Below the pieces are notes generated by a model that was not told the DNA's origin, did no database searches, and saw only the letters and a list, made by a program, of their open reading frames with translations. Shown here in pieces: positions 1 through 14,819 of a stretch of 14,819 nucleotides of DNA. Both the position numbers and the translations under genes were made by a program. Every line of letters begins with the position of its first letter. Position 1 is the first letter of the stretch. The stretch lies in contig CAYTLC010000047.1 of assembly GCA_964438395.1 (NCBI GenBank), forward strand, positions 1 to 14,819, given 5' to 3'. The DNA is from an uncultured Candidatus Scalindua sp. Its GTDB lineage: Bacteria > Planctomycetota > Brocadiia > Brocadiales > Scalinduaceae.

Positions 1-1101
1 ATTCTTCCCTGTGCCCATGCAGCCGAATCAACTACAGTGACGGTGGACGGTGTTGGCACATTAATAGGGAATGACAAGGCACGTGCGAGGGATGAGGCAC
101 TCAGAGACGCTTACCGGATGGCACTTGAAAAGGCCGGGGTTAACATGAGCACATATACAGAGATGGTGGACCTTGTCGTAATAAAGGATGTCGTACGCGC
201 AGAAGTATCTGGTCATGTGACGTCCTGGGAGATAGAAGATGAAGGTGTGCGGGGTGACGGTCTCTACTACGTGACCATAACGGCAAAAGTTGTAAAAGCT
301 CCTATTAAGAAAGATGATAAAGAGGCGTTGAGGTTGATTATAAACATGATGGGTAACCCCAGGTTTATCGTATTGATAGACGAGGCGAATAATGGAGAGA
401 AACCACCGTTTTCCACTCTTGAAGCTACGCTGACGGAGACATTGACTGATTATGGATACCACAGCATTGACCCGATACAGCAAAAAATAATTGAAGAGAC
501 AGAAGATGCCAGAAGGGCAATAGGGGGAGATACTAAAGCGGCACAGAAGCTTGCTATGAGAATGCAGGCTGACGTGATAATTACCGGCAAGGTATATACA
601 GAAAAGCTGCCAAAGAATGAGTACTTTAAAGAGACTAACTGGGTATCGAGCAAGGCATACAGTACTGTCCGGGCAGTAATCGCAGAGACGGGTAAGGTAC
701 TGGATGTTGCCAGCCCGGAGAAACCGGGCGCTGGATTGACCTTCAATGATGCAGGGACTAAGGCAATCAAACAGTGCGGACAGAGCCTGGCAGACGATCT
801 TATATGGAACATTCCTCAGCATATAGATGTTTATGACGGAAAAACCATTCAATTGCTGGTAAACGGGATCGAATACTCCGACTACTCTAAGTTGACCGGT
901 GAATTAAGAAACATGAGAAAGGTGACATATGTATTCCCAAGAGGATGGGAAAAAGATCAACCTGCTGTCTACGATGTAAAGACTATGGGTAATGCAGAAG
1001 CTCTGGCAGCAAGGCTTGAAGCTTTCGGTATGGAGATAGTAAGATTCAGTATGAATAAGATAGAGGTGAAAAAGGCTAAAAAGGGTTGGTTTAGTTGGTG
1101 A
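1..1101 (+). CDS. Secreted FlgT-like / LPP20-domain envelope protein; 5' end lies outside the window
   Basis: Frame 1 is open from base 1. The first residues (ILPCAHA|AESTT) look like the tail of a Sec signal peptide with an AxA cleavage site, so the GTG at 37 in the ORF track is probably internal. Stop TGA at 1099-1101. The N-terminal segment (DKARARDEALRDAYRMALEKAGV...DVVRAEVSGHVTSWEI...YYVTITAKV) fits the LPP20/FlgT-N pattern and is clearly paralogous to the N-domain of ORF 2965-3762. The middle segment (RFIVLIDE...ADVIITGKVY...VRAVIAETGKVL) resembles a CsgG/FlgO-type alpha/beta domain. The antisense ORFs inside it are shadows. Confidence 0.75.
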   Translation: MLPCAHAAESTTVTVDGVGTLIGNDKARARDEALRDAYRMALEKAGVNMSTYTEMVDLVVIKDVVRAEVSGHVTSWEIEDEGVRGDGLYYVTITAKVVKAPIKKDDKEALRLIINMMGNPRFIVLIDEANNGEKPPFSTLEATLTETLTDYGYHSIDPIQQKIIEETEDARRAIGGDTKAAQKLAMRMQADVIITGKVYTEKLPKNEYFKETNWVSSKAYSTVRAVIAETGKVLDVASPEKPGAGLTFNDAGTKAIKQCGQSLADDLIWNIPQHIDVYDGKTIQLLVNGIEYSDYSKLTGELRNMRKVTYVFPRGWEKDQPAVYDVKTMGNAEALAARLEAFGMEIVRFSMNKIEVKKAKKGWFSW

Positions 1102-1227
1102 TAGGGAAAGACAAAAGTCTGGATTCACAATCCCAGAATTTCTAAATCCTTAAATCAGTAAAAAATTTGAGTAAATTTGTTGAGTTAGTGTCGTCTTTTT
1201 TATCTTCATTAATCTGTGCCCCGGAAT

Positions 1228-2772
1228 ATGCATATGAAAAGATTATTTGCCCTGACACTGTTATTAGTCATTCTTTGTTCGATGTTCGGTTGTGTTACTG
1301 TGAATATCGTTAAGGATACACACACGGTACCACCACCTCCTCAACAGAAGCAGACGGTTCCTATGTATATGGAAAAGGAATATTCTGCCCCTCAGAAGGT
1401 TGATGCCTCCGAATTTGAGAAAGATATGAAGAGAGGCCGCGATCTTCTGAGCCGAAAACAGTACGGGGAGTCTATCGACTGTTTTAAAGCAATTGCGATA
1501 AGACATCCCAGAGAGACAAAGGTTCAGTACTATATTGCACTTGCCTATGACGAGAGTGGTGATAAGAGAGAGGCTTTACGGGGGTACAAGAGTTTCGTCG
1601 ATATTCAGACAGGTAATGAGGTACTGGTACGGAAGTCCAGGAGCAGGATACGTGTGCTCAAGGACACTATTGCGGAGGAGCTTATCAAGGCGGCAACTGT
1701 ACTTGTAGAGGACCATGAGTATGGAGGTTCTTTTAAGAGGCTTGAAGAGGCGTATGACCTGCGACCATCTCCTGCCACATCAAAGAAAATTGTAGAGCTG
1801 TATGACAGGTATTCAATAAACTCTATAGCCTGGCAGATGTCATCCTTCGGTGATTTGTTATCTGAGAACTCTGTATCTATCGTGCCTTTTACTGATCTGG
1901 CAGGAGAAGGGACCAGGGAGGGGAGTGCCGTTGCGATGGAGCTTAAGAATGAGCTTGTTAATATGGAGGAGTTAGATGTCTATGTTCGCGATGATGCTTC
2001 TCTCAAAGCTATATTGAATGAGGTAGAGTTTGGTGATTCCGGCGCCATTGATGAAAAGACAAGAATAGAGCTGGGCAAACTGGTAAGCACCGGGGCAGTT
2101 ATTACGGGCAGGATCGGTTATGTTGCAGATACATTTAAGATCAATGGATGGATGATAAATGTAGAGACCGGTAAGATAATTACATCCAGGAGCGTCAGTG
2201 TCCTCGGTTGGAATATTGCAGATACGGATAAGTACGCCGATTTCAATATCAAGGTATGGATGGACAGGAAGGAGTACATTATCGGAGATTCGGTGGAGAT
2301 AAATGTACAGACCAACAAGGATTGTTTTGTTACCCTGCTGAACGTTCGCAGTAACGGAGAGATATGGGAGCTGTTCCCCAATAGCTATAATAAGAACAAT
2401 TTCGTAAGGGCAAACACGAGGCACACTATTCCGTCTGGTAATGACAATTTTCGACTGGCCATAGTAGCACCTTCCGGCCAGGATTACATAAAGGCGATAG
2501 CCACCTCAGTACCTATAACCAGAGAGCAGATATCACAGGTACTCTCTGAAGAGAACTCTATCCTGGTATCCCCGGCAGACATCGTCAGGCAGAGAGGAGA
2601 ATCTGCCTTCAGGTCTGTCTCGCCATCAGAGATGAGGGGTCTTCATGAAATCCTGACAAGAGGAGTAGGAGTATTTCCCGATCCGAAAGGCAATCTCAGT
2701 TACAACAATTCCGACTCCGATACCAGGTTTGAGTACGCAGTGAGCACATGGTCGTTTGTGACTAAGAGATGA
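1228..2772 (+). CDS. Probable lipoprotein: TPR-like region + CsgG/FlgO/TolB-N-like periplasmic domain + DUF4384-like C-terminal domain
   Basis: The ORF opens at GTG 1216, with in-frame ATGs at 1228 and 1234. MKRLFALTLLLVILCSMFG|C is a signal peptide with a lipobox-like Cys. TPR-like helices: RGRDLLSRKQYGESIDCFKAIAIRHP...YYIALAYDESGDKREALRGYKSF. CsgG/FlgO-like core: VSIVPFTDLAGEG..GSAVAMELKNELVN...LKAILNEVEFGDSGAIDEKTRIELGKLVSTGAVITGRIGYV...INGWMINVETGKIITSRSV. DUF4384-like: IKVWMDRKEYIIGDSVEINVQTNKDCFVTLLNVRSNGEIWELFPN...HTIP...FRLAIVAPSGQDYIKAIATSVPI. Exact start is uncertain (1216, 1228 or 1234). Confidence 0.8.
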   Translation: MHMKRLFALTLLLVILCSMFGCVTVNIVKDTHTVPPPPQQKQTVPMYMEKEYSAPQKVDASEFEKDMKRGRDLLSRKQYGESIDCFKAIAIRHPRETKVQYYIALAYDESGDKREALRGYKSFVDIQTGNEVLVRKSRSRIRVLKDTIAEELIKAATVLVEDHEYGGSFKRLEEAYDLRPSPATSKKIVELYDRYSINSIAWQMSSFGDLLSENSVSIVPFTDLAGEGTREGSAVAMELKNELVNMEELDVYVRDDASLKAILNEVEFGDSGAIDEKTRIELGKLVSTGAVITGRIGYVADTFKINGWMINVETGKIITSRSVSVLGWNIADTDKYADFNIKVWMDRKEYIIGDSVEINVQTNKDCFVTLLNVRSNGEIWELFPNSYNKNNFVRANTRHTIPSGNDNFRLAIVAPSGQDYIKAIATSVPITREQISQVLSEENSILVSPADIVRQRGESAFRSVSPSEMRGLHEILTRGVGVFPDPKGNLSYNNSDSDTRFEYAVSTWSFVTKR

Positions 2773-2865
2773 TTGAATGCAATTTATTATTGGATCTATC
2801 TGCTTTTCTCTGCGTGAGAACTTTTCTTGCACCAGATCCACTTCCCACAACGATTAATAGGTAAA

Positions 2866-2897
2866 GCACTTAAGTTATTTGGATTAAGTGCGCTTTT
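2866..2897 (+). terminator. Candidate rho-independent terminator after the lipoprotein gene
   Basis: Perfect 8-bp stem GCACTTAA (2866-2873) / TTAAGTGC (2884-2891) with a 10-nt loop, followed by GCTTTTA. It lies 94 nt after the stop at 2772. Confidence 0.5.
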
Positions 2898-2964
2898 ACA
2901 ATAAGTTTCAGATTTTCAAACTCTAAACCCAATTATATTTATTTAAGAAGAAAGGGGTTGTGAT

Positions 2965-3762
2965 ATGTATCTACGGAGACTTAAACTTCTAGTGGTAGTT
3001 ATGCTGTTTGCAGGAATGGCGTTTACCGGTCAAGCCACGCTTAAGGCTGGTGAAAAGGTGTCCAGCGGAAAGGCAAATATTAATATTGGTGGAGGAGAGA
3101 GGGGTACCATTAACTGGGGTACAGAATTTATCACAGCGAAGGGTATTGTTCCGATAACACAGAATGAAGCGCTTGCAAGAAGAGGTGCTATAGTTGATGC
3201 CAACAGGAGATTACTGGAGATAATCAAGGGTGTTCGTATAGATGCCAAGACTGTTATATCCGACCTTATGGAAGTAAATGATGTCGTAAAGCAGGAGGTG
3301 AGCGGAGTGATTACCCATGCTGAGATAGTGAGTGAAAGCCAGAAGAACGGGAATTACATCATAAATATGCGGGTACCTGTGGGGAAATTCATCTCACTCA
3401 TTGTGAAAGACACACAGGTTTCCATACCGGACTTTCCGGCACCCACTAAATATACTGGACTGCTTATAGATGCCAGGGGGCACAATCTGGAGCCTGCAAT
3501 ATTTGTCAGTATATATAATGACAAGGACGGAACAAAGATATGCGGACCGATCCATCCAATATACCGCGTAAGTGTGAAGGGTCTTAGTAGTATCAATGAA
3601 GATCGTCTTGGTGACAATCCACTCAGGATCAAGATTAAGGGAACAACCGGTCCGAGCAATGTTGACATTACATTAAGTAATGGAAGCTCTAAAAAGGTGA
3701 GGAAGAAGATAATGAATACCGGGATATTCTCAAAGAGTAAGGTCATTATCATAATTGACTAG
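2965..3762 (+). CDS. Secreted LPP20/FlgP-like domain protein
   Basis: ATG at 2965 is preceded by AAAGGGG 7 nt upstream. Sec signal peptide MYLRRLKLLVVVMLFAGMAFTGQA|T. LPP20-type N-domain: ITAKGIVPITQNEALARRGAIVDANRRLLEIIKGVRIDAKT...DVVKQEVSGVITHAEI...YIINMRVPV. C-terminal half contains YTGLLIDARGHNLEPAIFVSIYNDKDG..ICG. Paralogous to the N-domain of the first gene. Confidence 0.8.
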   Translation: MYLRRLKLLVVVMLFAGMAFTGQATLKAGEKVSSGKANINIGGGERGTINWGTEFITAKGIVPITQNEALARRGAIVDANRRLLEIIKGVRIDAKTVISDLMEVNDVVKQEVSGVITHAEIVSESQKNGNYIINMRVPVGKFISLIVKDTQVSIPDFPAPTKYTGLLIDARGHNLEPAIFVSIYNDKDGTKICGPIHPIYRVSVKGLSSINEDRLGDNPLRIKIKGTTGPSNVDITLSNGSSKKVRKKIMNTGIFSKSKVIIIID

Positions 3763-3917: not shown

Positions 3918-5381
3918 TTAAACAGCTATGCCCTTGTCTGTCGGTACAGTAACAGCACTGCTCTTGTACCAATCCTTGTAATAGTCGCCTGAATCGTATA
4001 GTAGACGAAGATTTTCCAGCACCTGCTCAAACACTTGTATCCAGTCAGAGCCAACCCTGAACCCAAACATTGCATTACGTTTACCGTGAGTTGTGCTGCC
4101 GATAGTCTGAAGTGATTTTCTAAATCTTAGTCTTATATTGTCACCGGCGTACAGATGGTCATACATATATTGCATGCCTTCAATGAACTCCTCAAGGTTC
4201 ATATCTATGAGTCTATGAACTACATGTGCAGTATCATAATATTTCCAGTCTTCAGGATAGTTCTTTCTGAAAATCCTCTTTTCAGAGTCAAGCCTGTCGT
4301 AAAGCGCAGTCTTAGGAAACGGGCAGTTGATTCCAAAGGTAAGAACATCAATATTGTTTTGCAGTACAAAATCTGTCATCCTTTTGAATGAATCTTTGTC
4401 ATCTCCATCTGCTCCAAGAACTATTGATCCCCAGACAACCAGGCCATGATCGTGAATTTTCTGAACGCTGTCATAATACTTATCAGCACCAATCCTTAAG
4501 TTAGTCGTTTTATTCATCTTTTCCAGAACCGCTTCATTTGTTGATTCTATGCCGCAGAGAAATCCAAAATTTCCACTCTTTGCCATAAGATCAAGCACCT
4601 CTGCATCCTTTGATATATTGAGTGCAGTAAATCCAAGCCAGTCCTTTTTGATGCCCCTGTCTATCATGCCGCGAAAGAGGTCTTTTGCCCTGTTAGCAGA
4701 GTTCTTACTATGTCCATAGAAGTTATCTTCTGCAAACATGAGTCCCTGATAATCAGTTGATTCCATTTCGTCCAGAACATCTTCAAACGGTCTTTCTCTA
4801 TATTTCTTTCCCTGAAAGGTCGGTACGCTGCAGAAATCGCAGTAATTTGGACAACCTTTAGTTGTAACAATTGATGAAAACTTATAATCATATTTCTTCT
4901 TCAGGAGTTCTCTATCCGGAAATACATGTTTCATCTCTGACAGGCCTGGCAGCCCGCCTTCGTACTTCTTTTTGAGTTCGCCTTTTTCAAAATCTTTAAC
5001 GACTTGTGGCCACAATGTTTCGGCCTCTCCGATAAAAATTGCATCCACATGTTGTGAGGCTTCTTCCGGTACTACTGAAGCGTGTATGCCACCCATTACT
5101 ACGGTCATGCCTTTTTCTCTGCAGACCTTAGCTATCTGGTAAGCTCTTGGCACTTGATATGTAACAGAAGTGATACAAACCATATCCACAGGTTCAAATG
5201 TAATATCTCCTTTATCATCCAGAGCCAGTTCAAGATTTTCATCGATTACGTCAAACTCCCAGTCACCAGGTGTAAGGGCTGCTATGTATGCAAGATTTAA
5301 AGGCATTTGAACTATGACAGTTATGCTCTCCTCGCCATGTCTCCCGGGGGGATGTGGATTGATCAGCATCATTTTTCTCAT
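3918..5381 (-). CDS. Cobalamin (B12)-binding-domain radical SAM enzyme
   Basis: 487 aa. The N-terminal B12-binding-type Rossmann segment (MVCITSVTYQVPRAYQIAKVCREKGMTVVMGGIHASVVPEE) is followed by the radical SAM cluster motif TTKGCPNYCDFCS (CxxxCxxC). Strong SD AGGAGGA (5389-5395) sits 7 nt before ATG 5381 and overlaps the upstream gene's stop codon. Confidence 0.9.
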   Translation of the reverse strand: MRKMMLINPHPPGRHGEESITVIVQMPLNLAYIAALTPGDWEFDVIDENLELALDDKGDITFEPVDMVCITSVTYQVPRAYQIAKVCREKGMTVVMGGIHASVVPEEASQHVDAIFIGEAETLWPQVVKDFEKGELKKKYEGGLPGLSEMKHVFPDRELLKKKYDYKFSSIVTTKGCPNYCDFCSVPTFQGKKYRERPFEDVLDEMESTDYQGLMFAEDNFYGHSKNSANRAKDLFRGMIDRGIKKDWLGFTALNISKDAEVLDLMAKSGNFGFLCGIESTNEAVLEKMNKTTNLRIGADKYYDSVQKIHDHGLVVWGSIVLGADGDDKDSFKRMTDFVLQNNIDVLTFGINCPFPKTALYDRLDSEKRIFRKNYPEDWKYYDTAHVVHRLIDMNLEEFIEGMQYMYDHLYAGDNIRLRFRKSLQTIGSTTHGKRNAMFGFRVGSDWIQVFEQVLENLRLLYDSGDYYKDWYKSSAVTVPTDKGIAV

Positions 5382-5393
5382 TTTTTTATCCTC

Positions 5394-6827
5394 CTAATTA
5401 TTTAAAATCATATTGGCCACCCTCCAACCAGAGGATACTACAGCACATATCCCCGGCCCCGGATTAGTCCAGTGCCCGGCCAGAAAAAGATTTTTGAAGG
5501 GTGTTGTGTGTGAAAGTCTATTTGACCACGTCTGGTCTACAGTAACGGCCCAGCCATAGGCTGCGCCTTTTGAGTTGAGTGTGTAACGATATAACGTCTT
5601 CGGTGTGGCAGCGTCAATTACCTCTATATGGTCCTGGATTTCCGGTACAAAATTTTCCAGATAATTTATTGTATGTTTTTTCATTTTATCTTTATATGCA
5701 ACCCAATCGTCTATGTCGTCATAATTATCTCTTGACGAGACAACAACAGAAATTATTTGTTTGTTATCAGGTGCCAGGCTTGGATCAACTTCCGTAGGAA
5801 CGGAAATATAAAACCAGTCGTTACCTGAAAAACTTAAGTCATTTGATGTATGGTAAAAACCTCTTTTAAGGTCTTTTAAGTCTATTTTGTTATCAAGGCC
5901 AAGGTATAGTAAAAAGAAAGAAACACTTTCCTTCATATTCTCAATCTTGCGAAGATAAGAGTCGTCAACGCTGTTTTTGTCTAATAAAGAGAAAAATGTT
6001 TGTTTTGGATCTATGTTTGAGACAAAGATATCAGCCGAAATTTCCCCTCCTTTTTTAGTTGTAACTCCTTTTATAATATTACTATCCGTAAGCAATCCCT
6101 CAACGCTAGAAGATAGCATAATGTGACCGCCATAGTCAATAAATTTTTGGGTTATCGCATCAGCGAAATTCTGGGTACCACCGACAGGGAAATAAGCTCC
6201 ATCTTTTAGATAATTTACCAACATTTGACACATACCAATAGCTGAAACCTCATGAGGAGGGGAACCAATGTATCCCCACTGTGCAGACAGAGTCATCTTG
6301 AGCTGCTCATCTGTAAAAAAATTGTCCAGCATTTCCTTGTAGGTAAGGTTCTGGTATTTGATGAGCATTTTATGCGCTTCAGTGCTGAATGTAGCCCTGT
6401 ATAATCGGGTGAATTCCTTAAAAAATAGTGATAGTTGTTCTCTTTCTGATGGAAACCGTTCCTTCAGCAGATCCACATAATCATCTATTTCGGCAGGTAC
6501 ATCAATGGAAAATGAGGGGAAATGTATGCTGTCCATCGGATCAAGCTGTAGAAAATTAATATTTATGTCAAGCTCTTTAAGGCACCTGCCAACTACACTC
6601 CATTTTCCACACCCACCAATATGATGAACTGCTGAATCGAAAATAAAACCTTTTCTCTTAAAAGAGGTACAATAACCACCGGGGATACTATGTTGTTCAA
6701 TAATCAGCACGCTCTTTCCCTGTTTTGCCAGGAAAGTCCCGCAGATTAGACCGGCAATTCCGGCACCCAGTACAATTGCATCATACTTGGATTTAATTTC
6801 AGATTTGTTCAGGGAGAAATTACTCAT
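5394..6827 (-). CDS. FAD-dependent oxidoreductase, phytoene desaturase (CrtI/CrtD)-like
   Basis: 477 aa. N-terminal dinucleotide-binding motif YDAIVLGAGIAGLICGTFLAKQGKSVLIIEQHSIPGG. C-terminal FAD-contact motif NLFLAGHWTNPGPGICAVVSSG, typical of the CrtI/amine-oxidase superfamily. Lies 19 nt downstream of the KS-like gene. Confidence 0.85.
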   Translation of the reverse strand: MSNFSLNKSEIKSKYDAIVLGAGIAGLICGTFLAKQGKSVLIIEQHSIPGGYCTSFKRKGFIFDSAVHHIGGCGKWSVVGRCLKELDININFLQLDPMDSIHFPSFSIDVPAEIDDYVDLLKERFPSEREQLSLFFKEFTRLYRATFSTEAHKMLIKYQNLTYKEMLDNFFTDEQLKMTLSAQWGYIGSPPHEVSAIGMCQMLVNYLKDGAYFPVGGTQNFADAITQKFIDYGGHIMLSSSVEGLLTDSNIIKGVTTKKGGEISADIFVSNIDPKQTFFSLLDKNSVDDSYLRKIENMKESVSFFLLYLGLDNKIDLKDLKRGFYHTSNDLSFSGNDWFYISVPTEVDPSLAPDNKQIISVVVSSRDNYDDIDDWVAYKDKMKKHTINYLENFVPEIQDHIEVIDAATPKTLYRYTLNSKGAAYGWAVTVDQTWSNRLSHTTPFKNLFLAGHWTNPGPGICAVVSSGWRVANMILNN

Positions 6828-6846
6828 GAAAGATGTCGCTATGAAG

Positions 6847-8079
6847 TTATGAATATTTTGAGATGATTACGGAAGAGATGTTGCCTGTGTCGGAAAAGGA
6901 GTTGACCAGTACATTGTTTACTTCTGCCTCTCTGCTATCGTTAGGTACGCAATCCAGGTTACACTCTTCATCTTTTTCCTGATAGTTTATTGTCGGAGGG
7001 ATTATACCGTTATTGATTGATAATACACCGGCAACACATTGTAATGAACCTGATGCGTCAAGGCACTCTCCTGTCATAGACTTTATAGCACTTACAGGTA
7101 CTTTATCAGCGCTGTCACCAAAGTAGTCTCTAATGATTTTTGCTTCCATCATGTCACCTGTTACGCTGGAATTTGCACATGCGGATATATAAGAAACGTC
7201 TTCTTTGTTAATCCCGGCATCTTCCATTGCCATAGAGATACTCCTTACACCTTGAGTAGTGTTAATATCGTCACGTGAGGTTTTGTCCGGATTAAACGTA
7301 CATCCGTACCCTTTTATCTCGGCATAGATTTTCGCATTTCTCTCCAATGCGTCTTCAAGCCTTTCTATAACAAGTAACGCAGAAGCTTCACCAATTACAA
7401 AGCCGTTACGTCTTTTGTCAAATGGCGCGGAGATTTCAGCAGCATCACTGCTTCCTGACAATACTCCTGAACTGTAAGCACCCCAGAAAATATCACGGGT
7501 TAAACCATGAACTCCACCGGCTAATACAGCTTTTCCTCTACCTAGCTGTAGGAAATCAGAGGCGTAAATGATAGCGTCCAGTCCGCTGGCAGTTCCATTA
7601 GATATTGTAGAATTTAAACCTGTCGCATTGCAGAAAATAGATACTCTGCTTGCCGGTGCATTCAAGACAGTGTTCGGGAATGCCATGGGATTTACGAAAG
7701 TTGGTCCTTCCTGTAATCCTTCCAGGTCGAATGAGCTGATACTATCAATACTTCCATACGTTGACCCGATTACTATTCCAGTTTCTTCGGCACCATAAGT
7801 TTCGTGAGTGATATTAGCATCTTCCATGGCAAGCTTTGCAGAAGAAGATACCAATAGCGATGTTCTGTCAATGTGCCTGATGCCTTTTTTACCCAGGTAT
7901 TCCTTTGGATCAAAATCAGCAATCTCACCCGCTTTTTTGCTTTTGAATTTGGACACGTCAAAAAGGGTGATATCTTTTATTCCTGAGACACCATTCGTCA
8001 AATTGGTCCAGAACTCATCCTTGTTTACACCGATTGGCGATAAAACACTAATTCCTGTTATAACCAGGCGACTATCCAT
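6847..8079 (-). CDS. Ketosynthase-like protein lacking the catalytic Cys-His-His triad (chain-length-factor-like partner subunit)
   Basis: 410 aa with the full-length KAS-II fold (RLVITGISVLSPIGVNKDEFW...; ...PPTINY...CNLDCVPN). In a by-eye alignment to E. coli FabF, the active-site Cys is Thr163 (STISNGTASG; ACT at 7591-7593), the first His is Cys301 (YISACANSS; TGT at 7177-7179), the catalytic Lys is Met310 (GDMME) and the second His is Glu338 (KSMTGECL; GAG at 7066-7068). The ORF is intact with no frameshift. Confidence 0.85.
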   Translation of the reverse strand: MDSRLVITGISVLSPIGVNKDEFWTNLTNGVSGIKDITLFDVSKFKSKKAGEIADFDPKEYLGKKGIRHIDRTSLLVSSSAKLAMEDANITHETYGAEETGIVIGSTYGSIDSISSFDLEGLQEGPTFVNPMAFPNTVLNAPASRVSIFCNATGLNSTISNGTASGLDAIIYASDFLQLGRGKAVLAGGVHGLTRDIFWGAYSSGVLSGSSDAAEISAPFDKRRNGFVIGEASALLVIERLEDALERNAKIYAEIKGYGCTFNPDKTSRDDINTTQGVRSISMAMEDAGINKEDVSYISACANSSVTGDMMEAKIIRDYFGDSADKVPVSAIKSMTGECLDASGSLQCVAGVLSINNGIIPPTINYQEKDEECNLDCVPNDSREAEVNNVLVNSFSDTGNISSVIISKYS

Positions 8080-8128
8080 ATAATTTTAAACCTCTTATTA
8101 TGAAAATAATTTAATAACTGAAAAAATA

Positions 8129-8146
8129 TTAAACGTTTAACGTTAA
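8129..8146. promoter_or_regulatory. Two overlapping perfect palindromes (TTAAACGTTTAA / TTAACGTTAA) in the KS-to-KS-like spacer; candidate protein-binding site
   Basis: A 12-bp palindrome at 8129-8140 and a 10-bp palindrome at 8137-8146 share TTAA, with centres 7 bp apart. They lie within the 81-nt AT-rich gap between the two ketosynthase genes. Function unknown. Confidence 0.3.
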
Positions 8147-8160
8147 CTTGATTTTTGGTA

Positions 8161-9387
8161 TTAGCCGGTAAACCTTTTTAGTATGAGGCTGCTATTGTTA
8201 CCACCAAATGCATATGCGTTATTCATGGCAATATCAACCTGCATTTCACGCTTAACATTAGGTACAAAATCCAGATCGCACTCAGGATCCTTTGTTTCGT
8301 AATTTATAGTTGGAGGCACAACACTCTCTTTAATGGCTAAAGCGCATGCGATTGCCTCTATGGCGCTGGCAGCTCCCATTGTATGTCCAAGCATCGACTT
8401 TATGGAACTTATCGCCAGATTCTTTGCATGTTCTCCAAAGACCCTCTTAATAGATATTGTTTCCGCCTTGTCGTTAGCTACTGTTCCCGTACCATGAGCA
8501 CTCATATACTGAACATCTTCGGGCTTGATTTTTGCACTTTGCAACGCTTTTGTCATAGCCGAAGTAACACCATTTCCCTCCGGATGTGGAATTGTAATGT
8601 GATAACCGTCACAACTAAGTCCATAACCCAGGATCTCGGCATAAATATTTGCGCCTCTAGCCAGTGCACCTTCCATAGATTCTAATACCAGCATTCCGGC
8701 ACCTTCACCAACCAACAGGCCTTTTCTGTTCTTATCAAAAGGTTGGCAAATGTCAGGTGCAATAGCATTTAGCCTGCTAAAACCGACAAATGCTACTTTA
8801 GAAAACGGATCAGAGCCGCCGGCAAGCATTATGTCAGCTCTACCTAATTTTATCAGGTCACATGCATATCCAATAGCATAGTTTCCCGCTGCACATGCAG
8901 TAGGTATTATTGTGCTTGGCCCTTTAAGACCAAATTCAATAGATATGTTAGACGGCATATTGACGCAGGGATGCTGATGGAACAGACCGGGGTCTACGCT
9001 ATCCTCACCCTTCTCATGTCTGATATAGTTTACTTTTTCCAGAATCTGAATTTCACCTGCAGTTGTTCCAATTGAAACACCTGTTCTTTCAGGGTCAGTA
9101 TTGTTCAGGTCAACATTAGAGTCATCGATAGCGAGTTTTGCAGCAGCTATGGCAAATTGTGAACCTTTGCCAATCTCTCGATTTGAACCATTTTTTGTGT
9201 AATCTCCATAATTGAAATCTTTGACTGTACAGCCTCTGTGAACTTTAAAAGGAGAGGTGTCAAATGATGTGATCTCAGATACACCGGATGTGCCTGAGAT
9301 TAATGCATCCCAAAACAGATCTTTTGTGTTTCCAATAGGGGAGATTACACCTAAACCGGTAATTACAATTCTTTTATCTTTATCCAT
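8161..9387 (-). CDS. fabF: Beta-ketoacyl-ACP synthase, KAS II (FabF) family, catalytically complete
   Basis: 408 aa. N-terminus [24 protein letters not shown]. Active-site Cys165 ([14 protein letters not shown]), His298 (YMSAHGTGT), Lys306 (NDKAE), His335 ([11 protein letters not shown]). C-terminus [13 protein letters not shown]. Starts 29 nt after the fabZ stop. Confidence 0.9.
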
Positions 9388-9416
9388 GGTTGATTATTTT
9401 TAAAGTACTAATGCTT

Positions 9417-9866
9417 TTATCCTGTTAATGAATCTTTGTCCGCAACACCAAAGCTCAACGTCGCTTTTGTTACAACTTTGTCTCCCACTTTTGCCACTCC
9501 CTTAACTATTGCCGCACTGGAAATGACCTTTTCAATATCTACTTCCAGAATAAGCTGGTCACCGGGAAATACGGGTTTTGAAAAACGTACGTTTGCGGAA
9601 GCCAACAAGAAGACTTTATCTTTATTCTGCTCGGTATCAAAGCTCTTTTTGAAGAGGATAATCGAGGCTTGCGCCAGAGCTTCTACAATGAGAACCCCAG
9701 GCATTATGGCAAAATCAGGGAAGTGTCCAACGAAGAAAGACTCATTGCCGGAGATGTTTTTCAGGCAAACAATTCTGCTCTCTTTTTGAAGTTCAGTAAC
9801 TTTATCAATAAATAAGAAAGGGTATTTTTGAGGAACCAACTCTCTTACTTCCTCAAAGTTCAACAT
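9417..9866 (-). CDS. fabZ: 3-hydroxyacyl-ACP dehydratase FabZ
   Basis: 149 aa hot-dog fold protein. LVPQKYPFLFIDKV; catalytic His in FFVGHFPDFAIMPGVLIVEALAQ, with the catalytic Glu in VEALAQ; PVFPGDQLILEV. Collinear with E. coli FabZ. Confidence 0.92.
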   Translation of the reverse strand: MLNFEEVRELVPQKYPFLFIDKVTELQKESRIVCLKNISGNESFFVGHFPDFAIMPGVLIVEALAQASIILFKKSFDTEQNKDKVFLLASANVRFSKPVFPGDQLILEVDIEKVISSAAIVKGVAKVGDKVVTKATLSFGVADKDSLTG

Positions 9867-9973
9867 ATAAAATAACCTTTCGTTCTATCGTATATAGTAG
9901 CCACCGCCCATCCACCTTTATCGTTTGTGGATAGGCAAATAGATGATTAAGAAAGCGTAACAAGCTTTATCTA

Positions 9974-10225
9974 TTATCCTTCAAGTGTAGACCTGGTCAT
10001 CTCAATAGTTGCATTCAATGATGTAATGTCTACAAGTTTTTCTTCCGGAATTTGAACCTTAAACTTCTTTTCTATAAGGGCAAGAATTTCCAATGCCAAT
10101 AAGGAATCAATTTCCAGATCCTTAAAAAAATCAGCATCCCTTTTTTCCCATATTTCAGTCTCATCCAGCTCGGTTACTTCAGCAACAATAGCAGTGATAT
10201 CTTTCTCTAAGTTCTCTGCAGACAA
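9974..10225 (-). CDS. acpP: Acyl carrier protein (cluster-dedicated ACP)
   Basis: 83 aa acidic protein with the phosphopantetheine attachment motif DLEIDSLLALEIL (DSL). It uses a TTG start at 10225-10223. GGAGG (10233-10237) lies 7 nt upstream and an in-frame TAG at 10238-10240 blocks any longer ORF. Confidence 0.88.
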   Translation of the reverse strand: MSAENLEKDITAIVAEVTELDETEIWEKRDADFFKDLEIDSLLALEILALIEKKFKVQIPEEKLVDITSLNATIEMTRSTLEG

Positions 10226-10668
10226 TATCTTACCTCCCTAATAAACAACCAGAAATCTAACTATGAACCCAAAACACCAATCAAAAAGCTATTTAAACGG
10301 GTATTTATGAAGTTACATTCTGTAAAAATTATTGATCTAAAAGTATTGATAGTATTTGATTACGATAAAATGAAAATTATCGAAAAGGGAAAAATAACAA
10401 ACTTATATCAATATGTCAATAACAATCTTAGGACAATTTACATTGTTGACAGGTATAGACGATTACTGTTAGGAATAGTATATATTCAATCCAAACTGAT
10501 GGCATTTGAAACCGGTCCGAAAAACGTTGTTAATGAGTGTTTTCCTGGTGTATGTGCAGTAGAGAAGAACGGCGGAATGAAGTCGCGTAGGACTGACAAA
10601 AGTGTATAAGTCTCTAAGGTCACAGGACTTTCTATTATAATTGGTACTAGTTTTTTATTTAAATATAC

Positions 10669-10697
10669 TTGACAACAATACTTAGTATGGATAAACT
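10669..10697 (+). promoter_or_regulatory. Candidate sigma-70-type promoter for parA
   Basis: TTGACA (10669-10674), a 17-nt spacer, then TAAACT (10692-10697), about 55 nt upstream of ATG 10751. Pattern match only. Promoter rules in this lineage are not established. Confidence 0.35.
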
Positions 10698-10750
10698 TTT
10701 CACTATTATCCTGATATTTTCTATAAAAGCACAAATCAATGAGGAGCAAA

Positions 10751-11518
10751 ATGCGTAGTATTGCGTTCATAAATCAAAAAGGTGGGGTGGGGAAAACAAC
10801 TTCGACCGCAAATGTTGGAGCATGCCTGGCTGCACATGGCAAAAAGGTGCTTATCATAGACCTCGATCCTCAAGCCAACCTGAGTATTCATTTCGGTATT
10901 AATGTCCAGGGAAAAGATTCATCTATTTATGAGATTATGTGCGGTAAGAAGACTGTTAAAGATGTACTAATAAAGACTTCTATTGCTAATCTGGATATTA
11001 TCCCTTCCGACATTGACCTTGCAAGTGCAGAGGTAGAACTCGTTAACACGGTAGGGCGTGAAACAATCGTTAAGTTCTATCTTGAAGGGATGTTAGAAGA
11101 ATATGATTATGTTTTAATTGACTGTCCACCGTCTTTAGGTCTTCTCACTCTGAATGCACTTACTATTGCCAACGAAATTTTTATTCCTCTTCAGACTGAG
11201 TTCTTTGCTCTGCAGGGCGTAAGTAAGCTGATACAAACTTTTGATGTTATCAAGAAACGGCTGAACAGCAAGTTAGAGATCACAGGAATAATACCTTGTA
11301 TGCATGATAGCAGGACAAAGCTGGGGCAGGCAGTGCTTGATAAGATCAAAGAATATTTTTCAGATAAGGTATTTAAAACGACCATTAGAAAAAATATTAA
11401 GCTTTCAGAATCAACAAGTCATGGTGTGCCGGTTACAGTATACGCTCCGGATTCTAATGGCGCTCAAGATTACGAGACGTTAACCAAAGAGATAATGTCC
11501 ATGAAGAAAAAGAAATAG
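10751..11518 (+). CDS. parA: ParA/Soj-family partition ATPase
   Basis: Deviant Walker A with signature Lys (INQKGGVGKTTSTAN), A' motif VLIIDLDPQAN, Walker B YVLIDCPPSLG. The Soj-like C-terminus is APDSNGAQDYETLTKEI. The ORF opens at ATG 10739, but GAGGAG (10741-10746) 4 nt before ATG 10751 favours the second ATG (MRSIAFINQKGG...). Confidence 0.9.
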   Translation: MRSIAFINQKGGVGKTTSTANVGACLAAHGKKVLIIDLDPQANLSIHFGINVQGKDSSIYEIMCGKKTVKDVLIKTSIANLDIIPSDIDLASAEVELVNTVGRETIVKFYLEGMLEEYDYVLIDCPPSLGLLTLNALTIANEIFIPLQTEFFALQGVSKLIQTFDVIKKRLNSKLEITGIIPCMHDSRTKLGQAVLDKIKEYFSDKVFKTTIRKNIKLSESTSHGVPVTVYAPDSNGAQDYETLTKEIMSMKKKK

Positions 11519-11653
11519 CATCCCTGATGGGCGATGCATATATCCAGAGAGCGTGCTTCCCTGTAATACAATTTCAAACCGTAGATTAAACCAACAGTAT
11601 CTGTTTGTAGATTATAGAATTTTGGTGATATTTGTTGCTAAAAGGAAAGATTT

Positions 11654-12301
11654 GTGGCAAAAAAAAATGTACTTGGGTCGGATCCATTTGAGTGGTTAAA
11701 GAAGGATGATAAAGAAGAGGGCACTGAAGATAAGAAGAGCGATATTGGTGCTCAGAAGAAACAGGAAGAGAAACAAGCTGACCCGGTAGTAGCTAAAGAA
11801 GAGACAAGTGTTAAACAGGAAGTTAAACAAGAAGTAAAGCAGGAAGTAGAAAAGGAAGTAAAGAGTGAGGTAAAGAAAGAAGTAAAGAAAGAGGTAAAGA
11901 AGAAAGTAAAGCAGGAAGCGAAAGCATACGAACCTATAGATGTCTCCGCCACAACTAAACCACCGGTCAGCAAGGCTTACGATAAAATAATAGAACCATA
12001 TCTCCAGCAGGAAGAAGAAGCTTTTGAACCCAGTGACATATCAGAGGCAAATCGAAAAGCTGTTTTGGGTAAGGATGTCTATGCTCATCATGCCAAATCT
12101 CGTAAAGCAACACAAAAAGATAGCCCCGCAACTGCATTTGTAATTGTATACACAGTCTTATTGCTGATTCTCGGTTTCATAGTCTATAAAGATCTGACAA
12201 AACAGATTAATAAATTGGAGACGAAGTTGGACCGTGTAGAAAAGAAGCTTGATGAGGGTGTAATAGACTACGAGGATGCAAAACTAGATGGTGAGTGGTG
12301 A
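11654..12301 (+). CDS. Lys/Glu-rich repeat protein with a single TM helix and C-terminal coiled coil; possible ParA partner or adaptor
   Basis: GTG start at 11654 is the only start available: in-frame TAA at 11639-11641 and no Met codon anywhere in the 215 aa. AAGGAAAG lies upstream. The first ~165 aa are highly charged and include nine VK(Q/K)E tetrapeptide repeats. Hydrophobic helix ATAFVIVYTVLLLILGFIVY, then heptad-like KDLTKQINKLETKLDRVEKKLDEG. The protein ends ...KLDGEW. No family recognised. Confidence 0.7.
   Translation: MAKKNVLGSDPFEWLKKDDKEEGTEDKKSDIGAQKKQEEKQADPVVAKEETSVKQEVKQEVKQEVEKEVKSEVKKEVKKEVKKKVKQEAKAYEPIDVSATTKPPVSKAYDKIIEPYLQQEEEAFEPSDISEANRKAVLGKDVYAHHAKSRKATQKDSPATAFVIVYTVLLLILGFIVYKDLTKQINKLETKLDRVEKKLDEGVIDYEDAKLDGEW
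11810..11917 (+). repeat. 9 x 12-bp in-frame tandem repeat (GTWAARSARGAR-like) encoding (V-K/E-x-E)n
   Basis: Units in order: gttaaacaggaa, gttaaacaagaa, gtaaagcaggaa, gtagaaaaggaa, gtaaagagtgag, gtaaagaaagaa, gtaaagaaagag, gtaaagaagaaa, gtaaagcaggaa. They are contiguous from 11810 to 11917. Confidence 0.9.
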
Positions 12302-13092
12302 TTCATAATAGTATGTTCAACCTTAAACTTTTTTTCACGTCCATTATCCAATAATAGTTTCAACTCTCCGATATTAGAAATTCCCAGAAAAATTCCTGTA
12401 TACTCTTTATTGGCATTACGAACGTTGACCCTTCTTCCTATGTTCACACAGAACTCCTGCCACTTCTCCACAATATATTCGTAGCGTTCATCCTTTAATA
12501 TTAAGTACCACGAATCCAGATTTTGCAGCAGTGCCTTTGCAAAATTGGTGCGATCTATAAATGTCTCTTTTTCAATAGCAAGAGATGTTGCCGGTTGACC
12601 AATATGTTCAGGAAATTCATGCTTCTTTGAATTGACATTTATTCCAATTCCTACAATATAGTCTCTTAACTGTTCTGTATGGTCCTGTGTCTCTACAATT
12701 ATTCCACCCAATTTCTTGTTATTAATTACAAGGTCATTAGGCCAGTCGATATCAACAGGTAATTGGAACATGTCCCTTATGGTTTGTACGATAGCTACTG
12801 CAGTAATAACCATCAGAAGATACGAATTCTCCGGTTGGATTACAGGCCTTAAGACAACAGTCAGTAACAGGCCTTTTCCGCTCTTGCAATACCACTCTTT
12901 CCCTGACCGTCCTCTTCCCTGGGTCTGCTCTTCAACAAAGATAGTGGTTCCCTCAATAGCACCCTCTTTGAGCATCTTCTTTGCAATGTCCATTGTAGAT
13001 TCGGTACGTTCAAGCGTAACTATCTCCCTGCCTATAATATCTGTACGCAGGTTATCTTTAATCTTGTCAGCAGATAAGCGAACGTGTTTCAT
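12268..13092 (-). CDS. birA: Biotin--[acetyl-CoA-carboxylase] ligase, class I (no N-terminal HTH)
   Basis: 274 aa. Biotin-binding loop EEQTQGRGRSGKEWYCKSGKGLLLTVVLRP (GRGRxGxxW), then KWPNDL-like WPNDLVINNKKLGGIIVE and GIGINVN. The N-terminus goes straight into the catalytic domain. The last 34 nt overlap the convergent gene ending at 12301. Confidence 0.88.
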   Translation of the reverse strand: MKHVRLSADKIKDNLRTDIIGREIVTLERTESTMDIAKKMLKEGAIEGTTIFVEEQTQGRGRSGKEWYCKSGKGLLLTVVLRPVIQPENSYLLMVITAVAIVQTIRDMFQLPVDIDWPNDLVINNKKLGGIIVETQDHTEQLRDYIVGIGINVNSKKHEFPEHIGQPATSLAIEKETFIDRTNFAKALLQNLDSWYLILKDERYEYIVEKWQEFCVNIGRRVNVRNANKEYTGIFLGISNIGELKLLLDNGREKKFKVEHTIMNHHSPSSFASS

Positions 13093-14468: not shown

Positions 14469-14819
14469 TTATTTATTCTTAGCTTTATCATTTATCACTT
14501 CTATTATGTGATCATCGATTTCTGTGAATTGAATTGCGAAACCATTTATGGATGTGTTCAGGCGTTTTTTTGATCGAATGATTTTTCCGGCACATATTAT
14601 TGAAGGGTGGGTATGAGAGAAACCTATTTTCAGATCCAGGGTTGTACCAACCTTCAGCTTTTCCAGGGTATAAAAGAAAATACCGCCGGCACTCAGATTT
14701 ACTATGGCTACCATATCCCAGTCATTATAATTTATGTCACCAATTGATTTAACCCTGAATCTTGTAATGTATGGATTCGCTATTCTTGGATGTTTCCTCG
14801 CTTCTGAAAACTTGTACAT
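14469..14819 (-). CDS. Stand-alone PilZ-domain protein (putative c-di-GMP receptor)
   Basis: 116 aa. PilZ signature RxxxR (RKHPR, aa 8-12) and (D/N)xSxxG (NLSAGG, aa 41-46), then a beta-barrel-like remainder. The ATG is the last three bases of the window (14819-14817), so upstream context and a longer N-terminus cannot be excluded. Confidence 0.75.
   Translation of the reverse strand: MYKFSEARKHPRIANPYITRFRVKSIGDINYNDWDMVAIVNLSAGGIFFYTLEKLKVGTTLDLKIGFSHTHPSIICAGKIIRSKKRLNTSINGFAIQFTEIDDHIIEVINDKAKNK

Follow-up and report, generated by a model that had tools for sequence, protein, structure and literature searches.

In this study we describe a two-gene module in a stretch of Candidatus Scalindua DNA of 14,819 nt (the whole stretch is referred to here as the window), in which the gene of a Soj-like ParA ATPase is followed by a gene encoding a protein of 215 amino acids (aa). 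We estimate, at a probability of about 0.7, that this protein is the membrane-anchored cognate partner of the adjacent ParA, and the features of the two proteins suggest that it is probably a membrane, and not a centromere, to which the system links a nucleoid-bound ATPase. An earlier note made on this DNA had proposed that ParA is paired here with a membrane-anchored partner instead of ParB, and the proposal is supported by the adjacency of the two genes, by the transmembrane (TM) helix of the second protein and by the lack of an adjacent ParB gene. Bacteria generally position their cargoes with ParA/MinD ATPases, and it is the partner protein that sets the cargo; many ParAs stay “orphans”, their partners being too diverse to recognise. 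To our knowledge, the mechanisms of chromosome segregation and of anammoxosome inheritance in anammox bacteria are not known. The pair represents a concrete two-gene candidate for segregation or inheritance in these bacteria, and both Kuenenia and Brocadia, which serve as enrichment-culture models, have direct orthologues of it.

The source of the window is Candidatus Scalindua, an anammox planctomycete, and metagenome-assembled genomes (MAGs) of Scalindua gave the closest matches for both parA and the partner gene. The two open reading frames (ORFs), the KGGVGKT motif and the gap of 135 nt were located exactly where the earlier note had placed them. The features of the region are as follows.

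10669 to 10697, plus strand: sigma-70-like promoter candidate upstream of parA, TTGACA-17-TAAACT, 10 of 12 positions matching.
10739 to 11518, plus strand: Soj-like ParA ATPase, longest ORF 259 aa, or 255 aa from the probable start at 10751.
10778 to 10798, plus strand: deviant Walker A motif KGGVGKT, ParA residues 14-20, by sequence reading.
11519 to 11653, plus strand: spacer of 135 nt between parA and the partner gene, without a terminator-like site and without repeats.
11654 to 12301 (stop codon included), plus strand: probable membrane-anchored ParA partner, 215 aa, GTG start.
11654 to 11701, plus strand: N-terminal putative ParA-binding tag MAKKNVLGSDPFEWLK, residues 1-16, from the consensus of tagged sequences.
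11702 to 12028, plus strand: variable polyampholyte linker, residues 17-125, poorly conserved, mostly predicted to be disordered, with a helical K/E-rich stretch.
11813 to 11918, plus strand: tandem array of a 12-nt unit, 8.8 copies, encoding VKxE repeats.
12029 to 12127, plus strand: conserved juxtamembrane cytoplasmic segment EPSDISEANRKAVLGKDVYAHHAKSRKATQKDSP, residues 126-158, also found in the PilZ-fused paralogue P0289.
12128 to 12187, plus strand: transmembrane helix ATAFVIVYTVLLLILGFIVY, residues 159-178, near-invariant in Scalinduaceae.
12188 to 12253, plus strand: short leucine-zipper-like coil, residues 179-200, continuing the TM helix, probably on the non-cytoplasmic side.
12254 to 12298, plus strand: C-terminal tail, residues 201-215, with Trp as the last residue, conserved in Scalinduaceae-type members only.

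The promoter is listed as a candidate only, since the count of promoter-like sites in the region was not above the shuffled expectation. The start of ParA is ambiguous: the longest ORF begins at 10739, but the true start is more likely the ATG at 10751, because this codon has the Shine-Dalgarno sequence GAGGAG 5 nt upstream and the orthologues begin with MRSIA. The GTG start of the 215-aa ORF is directly preceded by AAAGGAAAG. We found no terminator between parA and the partner gene, and no centromere-like repeats upstream of parA or in the 135-nt spacer. In other lineages the two genes are separated by 9-50 nt or overlap.

The partner gene was located directly after parA in all 23 Scalindua-type loci that were fetched, which represent 18 GTDB species of Scalinduaceae; across these loci the identity was 77-98% for ParA and 38-93% for the partner. 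The pair was also present in Brocadia, in two Kuenenia genomes, in “Brocadiia bacterium” MAGs, in a Brocadiales MAG, on a Scalindua-like metagenome contig (L030) and in a “Planctomycetes bacterium”. Here, ParA orthologues with 60-75% identity preceded partners that were 148-210 aa long and had no Pfam domain. In these partners the N-terminus reads M-x-K-K-x-V/A-L-G-H-D-P-L-x-W-M/I, the linker is non-repetitive and quite different in composition, and the TM helix (YT-x-LLLILG-F/Y-x-V-Y-x-D) is followed by a short coil. In addition, a 359-aa ParA overlaps a 118-aa member of the partner family on a contig with 65% guanine-cytosine (GC) content, and another member was found on a contig with 60% GC. 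In the comparison that takes in Brocadia, Kuenenia, other Brocadiia, a high-GC planctomycete and the 65% GC contig, ParA identity drops to 56-67%. The GC content of the anammox loci fetched was 37-44%, so that the adjacency of the pair holds from 37% to 65% GC. The high-GC branch comprised only 10 clusters in the search for distant relatives and is thus rare in current data. Judging from the sequences retrieved, the partner family is small and centred on Brocadiia, and it reaches rare high-GC lineages (one member is labelled planctomycete). The TM helix is situated 23-54 residues from the C-terminus across what we regard as a new tag-linker-TM-coil family, to which the window protein belongs by its tag at residues 1-16, its single TM helix and its gene position directly after ParA. 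Conservation of the gene pair, on which the proposal of the earlier note depended, was observed in every locus with enough flanking sequence, including all 18 Scalinduaceae species.

The conservation of the 215-aa ORF indicates that it is a real gene and not a chance ORF. The protein matched 152 clusters at E ≤ 0.01 in a database of 5.8 billion proteins, with E values of 1e-32 to 3e-95 for the best 120 of the 152, and an exhaustive profile search of 1.84 billion representatives (at 50% identity) yielded 62 at E < 0.001. When 21 diverse members were aligned, K3, K4, L7, G8, D10, P11, W14 and L15 formed an invariant N-terminal block, and the segment from S157 to I185, which covers the TM helix and the following coil, was invariant as well; the middle of the protein was poorly conserved. 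A spurious or rapidly decaying low-complexity ORF might be suspected, as more than half of the protein is low-complexity and charged and the repeat copy number varies. However, more than 150 clusters and the 62 representatives have kept the reading frame, the TM helix and both termini, which leaves this explanation with practically no probability.

Between the tag and the TM helix the window partner has 143 aa with a charged fraction of 0.46 and a net charge per residue of 0.0. The earlier note had described a disordered polyampholyte of about 165 aa; the linker is indeed charged and mostly predicted to be disordered, but it is shorter. The AlphaFold2 model of the monomer (mean predicted local distance difference test score, pLDDT, of 57) served for secondary structure only. 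In this model the pLDDT was below 50 at residues 19-47 and 92-126, a moderately confident helix covered residues 47-91 over the K/E-rich repeats, and a continuous helix with a pLDDT of about 90 spanned the TM helix and the coil (residues 158-200). The nine VKxE repeats reported previously are present in the form of the 12-nt array, but they are not a feature of the family: the copy number ranges from 0 to 9 in close relatives, and the linkers of Brocadia and Kuenenia are non-repetitive. Given such variation between close relatives, we regard the array as a spacer of variable length and not as a functional hallmark.

The predicted single TM helix and short coiled coil were both confirmed. The hydrophobic helix at residues 159-178 has a Kyte-Doolittle value of 2.72, and reading of the sequence that follows placed L181, I185, L188, L192, V195 and L199 in heptad positions with 4-3-4-3-4 spacing, which amounts to about three heptads. 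A profile search against PDB revealed weak similarity of the coil region to designed coiled coils only. Within Scalinduaceae the TM helix is near-invariant whereas the linker diverges, which suggests that helix and coil are more than a greasy anchor and make specific contacts with themselves or with another membrane protein. As stated earlier, the last residue of the window protein is Trp. This residue terminates 123 of the 152 tagged TM members, all of them Scalinduaceae-type, and it is absent from Brocadia, Kuenenia, other Brocadiia and high-GC members; thus, it characterises one lineage and not the family. No Pfam or NCBIfam domain was detected in the 215-aa protein or in 10 relatives, and searches of the partner with Pfam, NCBIfam, PADLOC and PDB profiles gave no meaningful match. 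The matches to aconitase, REase_II and RB_A were rejected because they sit on the low-complexity linker.

The N-terminus of the partner is predicted to be cytoplasmic. In two relatives (P0288 and P0289) a PilZ domain (24.7 bits) is fused N-terminally to the same juxtamembrane-TM-coil module, and this module matches the window partner at E 4e-32. PilZ is a cytoplasmic receptor domain for cyclic di-GMP, so this fusion argues for a cytoplasmic N-terminus, as does the N-terminal part of the partner itself, which is long, highly charged and must meet a cytoplasmic ParA. The coil and the Scalindua-specific Trp tail would then probably be periplasmic or lumenal. With this topology the terminal Trp is located outside the cytoplasm and cannot act as it does in McdB. 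The PilZ fusions also indicate that the same membrane module may anchor a cyclic di-GMP receptor. A stand-alone PilZ ORF at the edge of the window (14469-14819, minus strand) shares 38% identity with the corresponding domain of P0289.

The N-terminal tag has the consensus M-x-K-K-x-[VA]-L-G-x-D-P-[LF]-x-W-[LIM]-K. Position G8 was identical in 187 of 187 tagged sequences, and L7, D10, P11 and W14, likewise K3 and K4, were near-invariant. The profile search uncovered a protein (P0323) that carries the same tag and a basic linker, has no TM helix and contains a ribbon-helix-helix (RHH) domain (RHH_3, 24.9 bits against a cut-off of 21.6); its gene is located on an integrase-bearing element directly after a ParA gene whose product is 51% identical to the window ParA. 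Metagenome contigs were scanned with a degenerate DNA pattern for ATG-x-K-x3-L-G-x-D-P-L-x-W-I/M, which matched 113 stretches; 80 loci were returned and 81 matches were classified. They included 26 TM-coil proteins, with ParA directly upstream in each of the 19 cases that had at least 900 nt of upstream flank. A further 29 proteins were of the RHH type and had a related full-length ParA upstream in 16 cases out of 18. RHH_3 was detected in P0323 and in the tagged protein of L094 (27.8 bits), and not in the window partner. One 280-aa protein with a CheW domain (115.7 bits) was encoded on a 540-kb contig (L054) in a ParP-like arrangement, and the C-terminal part of a ParA with 52% identity was found directly upstream of its gene. 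In L047 the tag heads a cut ORF that appeared globin-like by eye and had no Pfam match. The remainder of the scan, 25 ORFs, consisted of frameshifted RHH genes, ORFs cut by contig ends and tag-only orphans of 17-36 aa.

We also found a subfamily of tagless paralogues (P0291, P0294-P0296, P0298, P0300-P0303, P0305, P0306, P0311 and P0316), which have the TM-coil module with an RYHKLSQK juxtamembrane segment and a C-terminal IEIYD. At the one locus considered (L036, 8001-9748) such a paralogue is encoded between glmS and a gene for a PD40/TolB-like beta-propeller, and not next to a ParA gene. Since the same tag occurs on TM, RHH and CheW proteins encoded after ParAs and the tagless paralogue is not linked to ParA, the tag appears to track ParA adjacency and not the cargo module, and behaves as a modular ParA-binding tag. 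Its fixed position, the adjacency to ParA and its presence on RHH and CheW partners make the N-terminal peptide the likely ParA-interacting element, which supports the earlier suggestion that this peptide contacts ParA. In ParA/MinD partners in general, a short N-terminal peptide binds the ATPase and the remainder of the protein binds the cargo. The tag would thus mark the partners of one ParA clade regardless of the cargo module (RHH, CheW or TM anchor), and the CheW and globin-like ORFs suggest that this clade serves several cargo types. As the window partner consists of tag, spacer and membrane anchor alone, its cargo would be the membrane or something embedded in it. In practice, the tag could help to find the partners of orphan ParAs, and it could represent a naturally occurring case of the “luggage tag” idea.

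Tag-only ORFs of 17-36 aa (e.g., MDKKPRLGSDPLEWIRDTRK...) were observed in L041, L046, L048 (two copies), L053, L057, L077 and L078, and further ones in L080, L087, L102, L107 and L110. No ParA was found in these loci within the flank available, some of the contigs being short. Several of the tag-only ORFs share one sequence past the stop codon. The tag-only ORFs may derive from partner genes that were disrupted, or may belong to a repeated element. In three loci (L043 at 2341, L075 and L099) the tagged RHH gene after ParA was frameshifted, with an RHH part (RATFIMRKDFLEKLKAIAW...) that lies in the other frame and is identical in all three. A scan of viral contigs with the RHH protein P0323 gave no match.

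The ParA of the window is, as proposed earlier, a Soj-type ATPase with an intact KGGVGKT motif. It matched the Pfam families AAA_31 (E 1e-64) and CbiA (E 1.5e-25), and its nearest solved structures were M. xanthus ParA (8RAY), H. pylori Soj (6IUB) and Thermus Soj (1WCV), with E values of 3e-62 to 8e-52. It is far closer to Soj (214 bits) than to McdA (74 bits). According to the alignment with 8RAY, in which the M. xanthus residue number equals the window number plus 17, the window ParA has kept the ParB-binding pocket (V99, L133, L135, L138, V170 and L175) and the Arg-docking site (Y64, E65, D93 and E100). The DNA-binding R238 of M. xanthus ParA corresponds to K221, with R217 and K218 close by, and the basic DNA-binding positions are conserved among the orthologues. 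The ParAs end in KKKK or in acidic tails with no amphipathic helix and are thus devoid of a MinD-type membrane-targeting helix.

In M. xanthus ParB the ParA-binding motif is L11-G-R13-G-L15-x-x-L18-I19. R13 docks on Y81, E82, D110 and E117 of ParA and is needed for the stimulation of the ATPase, but not for binding. The spacing of hydrophobic residues in the tag (L7, P11/[LF]12, W14 and [LIM]15) resembles this motif, and the L-G dipeptide is shared. The similar hydrophobic pattern together with the conserved pocket of ParA makes it plausible that the tag docks in the ParB-binding pocket.

To place the window ParA, we constructed a neighbour-joining tree of 34 ParAs, which comprised those encoded upstream of TM-type and RHH-type tagged proteins and four canonical ParABS ParAs (M. 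xanthus and H. pylori taken from alignments, B. subtilis and T. thermophilus entered by hand). In this tree the tag-associated ParAs were separated from the canonical four in 97 of 100 bootstraps, and the TM-type ParAs were monophyletic in 86 of 100 and stood beside the RHH-type ParAs. The identity of the window ParA was 41-48% to the canonical ParAs and 47-56% to the RHH-type ParAs. This placement argues for an origin of the pair from a ParA plus RHH cassette whose DNA-binding domain gave way to a membrane anchor; thus, the TM module probably arose from a partition cassette by RHH-to-TM-anchor exchange.

In Scalindua, Brocadia, Kuenenia and one Brocadiia MAG, the 8-10 kb around ParA contained no gene with a ParBc domain, and a literature search found no statement on whether anammox genomes have a canonical ParB. 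The parS sequence (TGTTNCACGTGAAACA) at up to one mismatch was found neither in the window nor in the 29 loci L001-L029, and the earlier remark that the window has no parS-like site therefore holds at this threshold. One site with two mismatches was present: the near-palindromic 16-mer TGTTCCAATTGAAACA at 9064-9079 has two central mismatches to parS, lies in the first fabF and encodes V-S-I-G-T. The chance expectation of such a site in the window is about 0.03. Eleven other Scalindua loci have the 16-mer in the corresponding position, and the Brocadia and Kuenenia loci lack it; its conservation is attributed to coding constraint.

The tree and the tag bear on the explanation that ParA is an ordinary chromosomal Soj with a distant ParB and that the downstream ORF is an unrelated membrane protein that happens to share the operon, e.g., one like FtsB, FtsL or DivIC, which the earlier note had named as an alternative. 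FtsB and FtsL have the same architecture, with a leucine-zipper-like coil after a TM helix, and anammox division proteins are poorly known; moreover, a sub-threshold match to PF04977 (DivIC) was obtained, albeit at E 0.12 and in 2 of 11 members only. However, no Pfam, NCBIfam or PDB match was significant. The explanation also leaves unaccounted for the tag, which is the most conserved cytoplasmic element and recurs on RHH and CheW proteins by ParAs, as well as the lack of ParA linkage of the tagless paralogue and the persistence of the adjacency over the whole GC range. The division proteins have a short cytoplasmic N-tail, in contrast to the cytoplasmic N-region of 50-170 residues in the partner family. 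Since the window ParA groups with the ParAs of tagged partners and away from the canonical ones, the evidence leans against a chromosomal Soj with a distant ParB, and we consider this explanation very improbable, though a separate ParABS system may exist elsewhere in the genome.

Several points weigh against the view that the 215-aa protein is the cognate, membrane-anchored partner of ParA. This view is built on comparative inference throughout. The central Arg/Lys of the ParB motif, needed for ATPase stimulation, is S/T/H/Q in the tag, so that the tag might be a binder of ParA and not an activator, unless K3 and K4 take over from the missing residue. Conservation of the Arg-binding site would be expected, too, of a ParA on which a canonical ParB still acts. 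The positive-inside rule gives no preference to a cytoplasmic N-terminus, as the C-terminal flank of the TM helix has at least as many K/R residues as the N-terminal flank. Finally, the tree is a simple neighbour-joining one with four canonical ParAs as outgroups, two of which were entered by hand.

Some of the same observations would suit a partner that acts as a spatial regulator or sequestration site holding ParA at the membrane, like TipN, HubP, PopZ or PadC-bactofilin. In that case the real cargo would be DNA, held by a centromere-binding protein (a canonical ParB or another one) whose gene is located elsewhere. The intact ParB-binding pocket and Arg-docking site and the close resemblance of the window ParA to solved chromosomal ParAs fit this explanation, and a tag lacking the central Arg/Lys for hydrolysis suits a binder or tether better than an activator. 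However, in every lineage the gene is placed in the operon as that of a cognate partner would be, the RHH proteins that carry the same tag in the systems of related ParAs resemble true centromere binders, and the ParA clade is separate from canonical ParABS and has no ParB gene within 8-10 kb. A role in sequestration is therefore considered unlikely, and we favour the cognate partner.

If the 215-aa protein is the cognate partner, the mechanism could be as follows. ParA-ATP dimers would coat the nucleoid, in agreement with the intact DNA-binding positions and partner pocket, and the membrane-anchored partners would reach ParA via flexible linkers of 35-190 residues, with the tag binding ParA at the dimer interface. 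In this way the nucleoid would be coupled to the membrane surface or to a complex that the TM helix and coil organise. If the tag triggers ATP hydrolysis, a depletion-zone diffusion ratchet could arise, as in ParABS or McdAB. By such a ratchet, membrane-bound cargo would be spaced or partitioned along the nucleoid, which is equivalent to keeping the nucleoid at the membrane. The anammox nucleoid is located in the riboplasm surrounding the anammoxosome, and the partner might reside in the anammoxosome membrane, where the pair would tether and partition organelle and nucleoid at division and possibly replace ParB-parS. We regard this more specific role as quite unlikely. The occurrence of the module on loci with 60-65% GC weakens the anammoxosome idea and favours a more general role. 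If true, the anammoxosome idea would mean a ParA-based inheritance system for a membrane-bounded bacterial organelle.

A literature search found no description of a ParA partner with tag, linker, TM helix and coil. By comparison with known systems, the pair would work like a ParA/partner positioning system that is closest by descent to ParA plus RHH (type Ib-like) cassettes, closest by logic to McdAB and ParC-ParP, and closest by outcome to the membrane landmarks TipN and HubP. With ParF-ParG and delta-omega (type Ib-like) it shares a small Soj-like ParA without an N-terminal helix-turn-helix (HTH), a partner gene immediately downstream and a flexible N-terminal tail of the partner that, in the window protein putatively, contacts ParA; moreover, RHH proteins with the identical tag follow the closest non-Brocadiia relatives of the window ParA. 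It differs from them in that the window partner has a TM helix and coil and no RHH or other DNA-binding domain, and in the lack of iterated centromere-like repeats near the genes. The tag resembles the ParB motif of ParABS (LG[RK]GLxAL[LI]) in its N-terminal position, the leading basic residue(s), the L-G pair and hydrophobic residues at about i, i+4/5, i+7 and i+8, and the window ParA keeps the pocket residues that bind the ParB motif. In contrast to ParB, the partner is devoid of the CTPase and HTH domains and of the central Arg/Lys and has a D-P pair inserted in the tag, and the window ParA falls outside the canonical clade, with neither an adjacent ParB gene (within 8-10 kb) nor parS nearby.

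In McdB, about 20 N-terminal residues contact the ATPase, the basic N-terminal region being necessary and sufficient for this binding, while the remainder attaches to the cargo; an invariant C-terminal Trp binds the carboxysome. The window pair is similar to McdA-McdB in combining a ParA-type ATPase with a small, largely disordered, highly charged partner that has a basic N-terminal region (K3 and K4 in the tag). However, its cargo module is a TM helix instead of a shell-binding region, and the Trp, which is probably extracytoplasmic, occurs in Scalinduaceae-type members only. The earlier note had taken a charged disordered partner with a conserved terminal Trp as the hallmark of McdB-type adaptors; this reading was not supported, because the VKxE repeats and the Trp are lineage-specific. 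In ParC-ParP, which positions chemoreceptor arrays, and in PpfA-TlpT, a cargo that is membrane-associated or a large protein is connected to a ParA-like ATPase by the partner through its N-terminal region, as is suggested for the window pair, and a tagged CheW-domain protein exists beside a related ParA. The window partner differs in having no CheW domain and in being itself an integral membrane protein.

TipN of Caulobacter is a membrane-anchored protein with a long coiled or repeat-rich acidic cytoplasmic region that captures ParA, and HubP of Vibrio has a similar anchor, a long repeat-rich acidic cytoplasmic region and the same ability to capture ParA. Unlike the window partner, these proteins are large, serve multiple clients and are encoded outside the par operon; the topology of HubP is opposite. 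No sequence similarity of the window partner to TipN or HubP was detected. As the window partner lacks a defining feature of each of the ParB, McdB, FtsB/DivIC and RHH-partner families, it is not considered a member of any of them.

In Scalinduaceae the pair is divergent from a conserved cluster on the minus strand (3918-10225), which is syntenic in all Scalindua loci and encodes an acyl carrier protein (ACP), a FabZ/FabA-like dehydratase, two FabF-like ketoacyl-ACP synthases, an amine-oxidase/phytoene-desaturase-like flavoprotein and a B12-binding radical SAM enzyme. This cluster resembles the gene sets proposed for the synthesis of anammox ladderane lipids. In a Brocadiia MAG the pair is situated divergently beside rpmF-plsX-fabH-fabD-fabG-acpP-fabF. 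The repeated link to lipid-synthesis genes may be meaningful or may be inherited gene order only. A gene for biotin-protein ligase is located convergently, directly or 1-2 genes downstream, in all non-Scalinduaceae lineages and in 11 of the 18 Scalinduaceae species loci. In the window this gene (birA, 12268-13092, minus strand) converges with the partner gene and shares 34 nt with its 3' end (12268-12301). In five Scalindua loci (L001, L002, L003, L008 and L009), at about 10528-10712, only the first ~40 and the last ~25 codons of birA were detectable, which looks like the remnant of an internal deletion.

The rpmH gene, encoding ribosomal protein L34, was found about 4 kb downstream of the partner gene in two Scalindua-type genomes, in L001 (14577-14708) and L004 (6618-6752). 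This gene frequently lies close to the replication origin, so that the pair, too, may be near the origin in these genomes. In the K. stuttgartiensis record CP049055 the pair is located at about 250 kb. At the other end of the window (37-3762, plus strand) there are three consecutive ORFs of 354, 518 and 265 aa with at most weak matches (LipL46 lipoprotein at E 8e-8 and hints of tetratricopeptide-like repeats), and two of the three begin with signal-peptide-like or lipoprotein-like N-termini.

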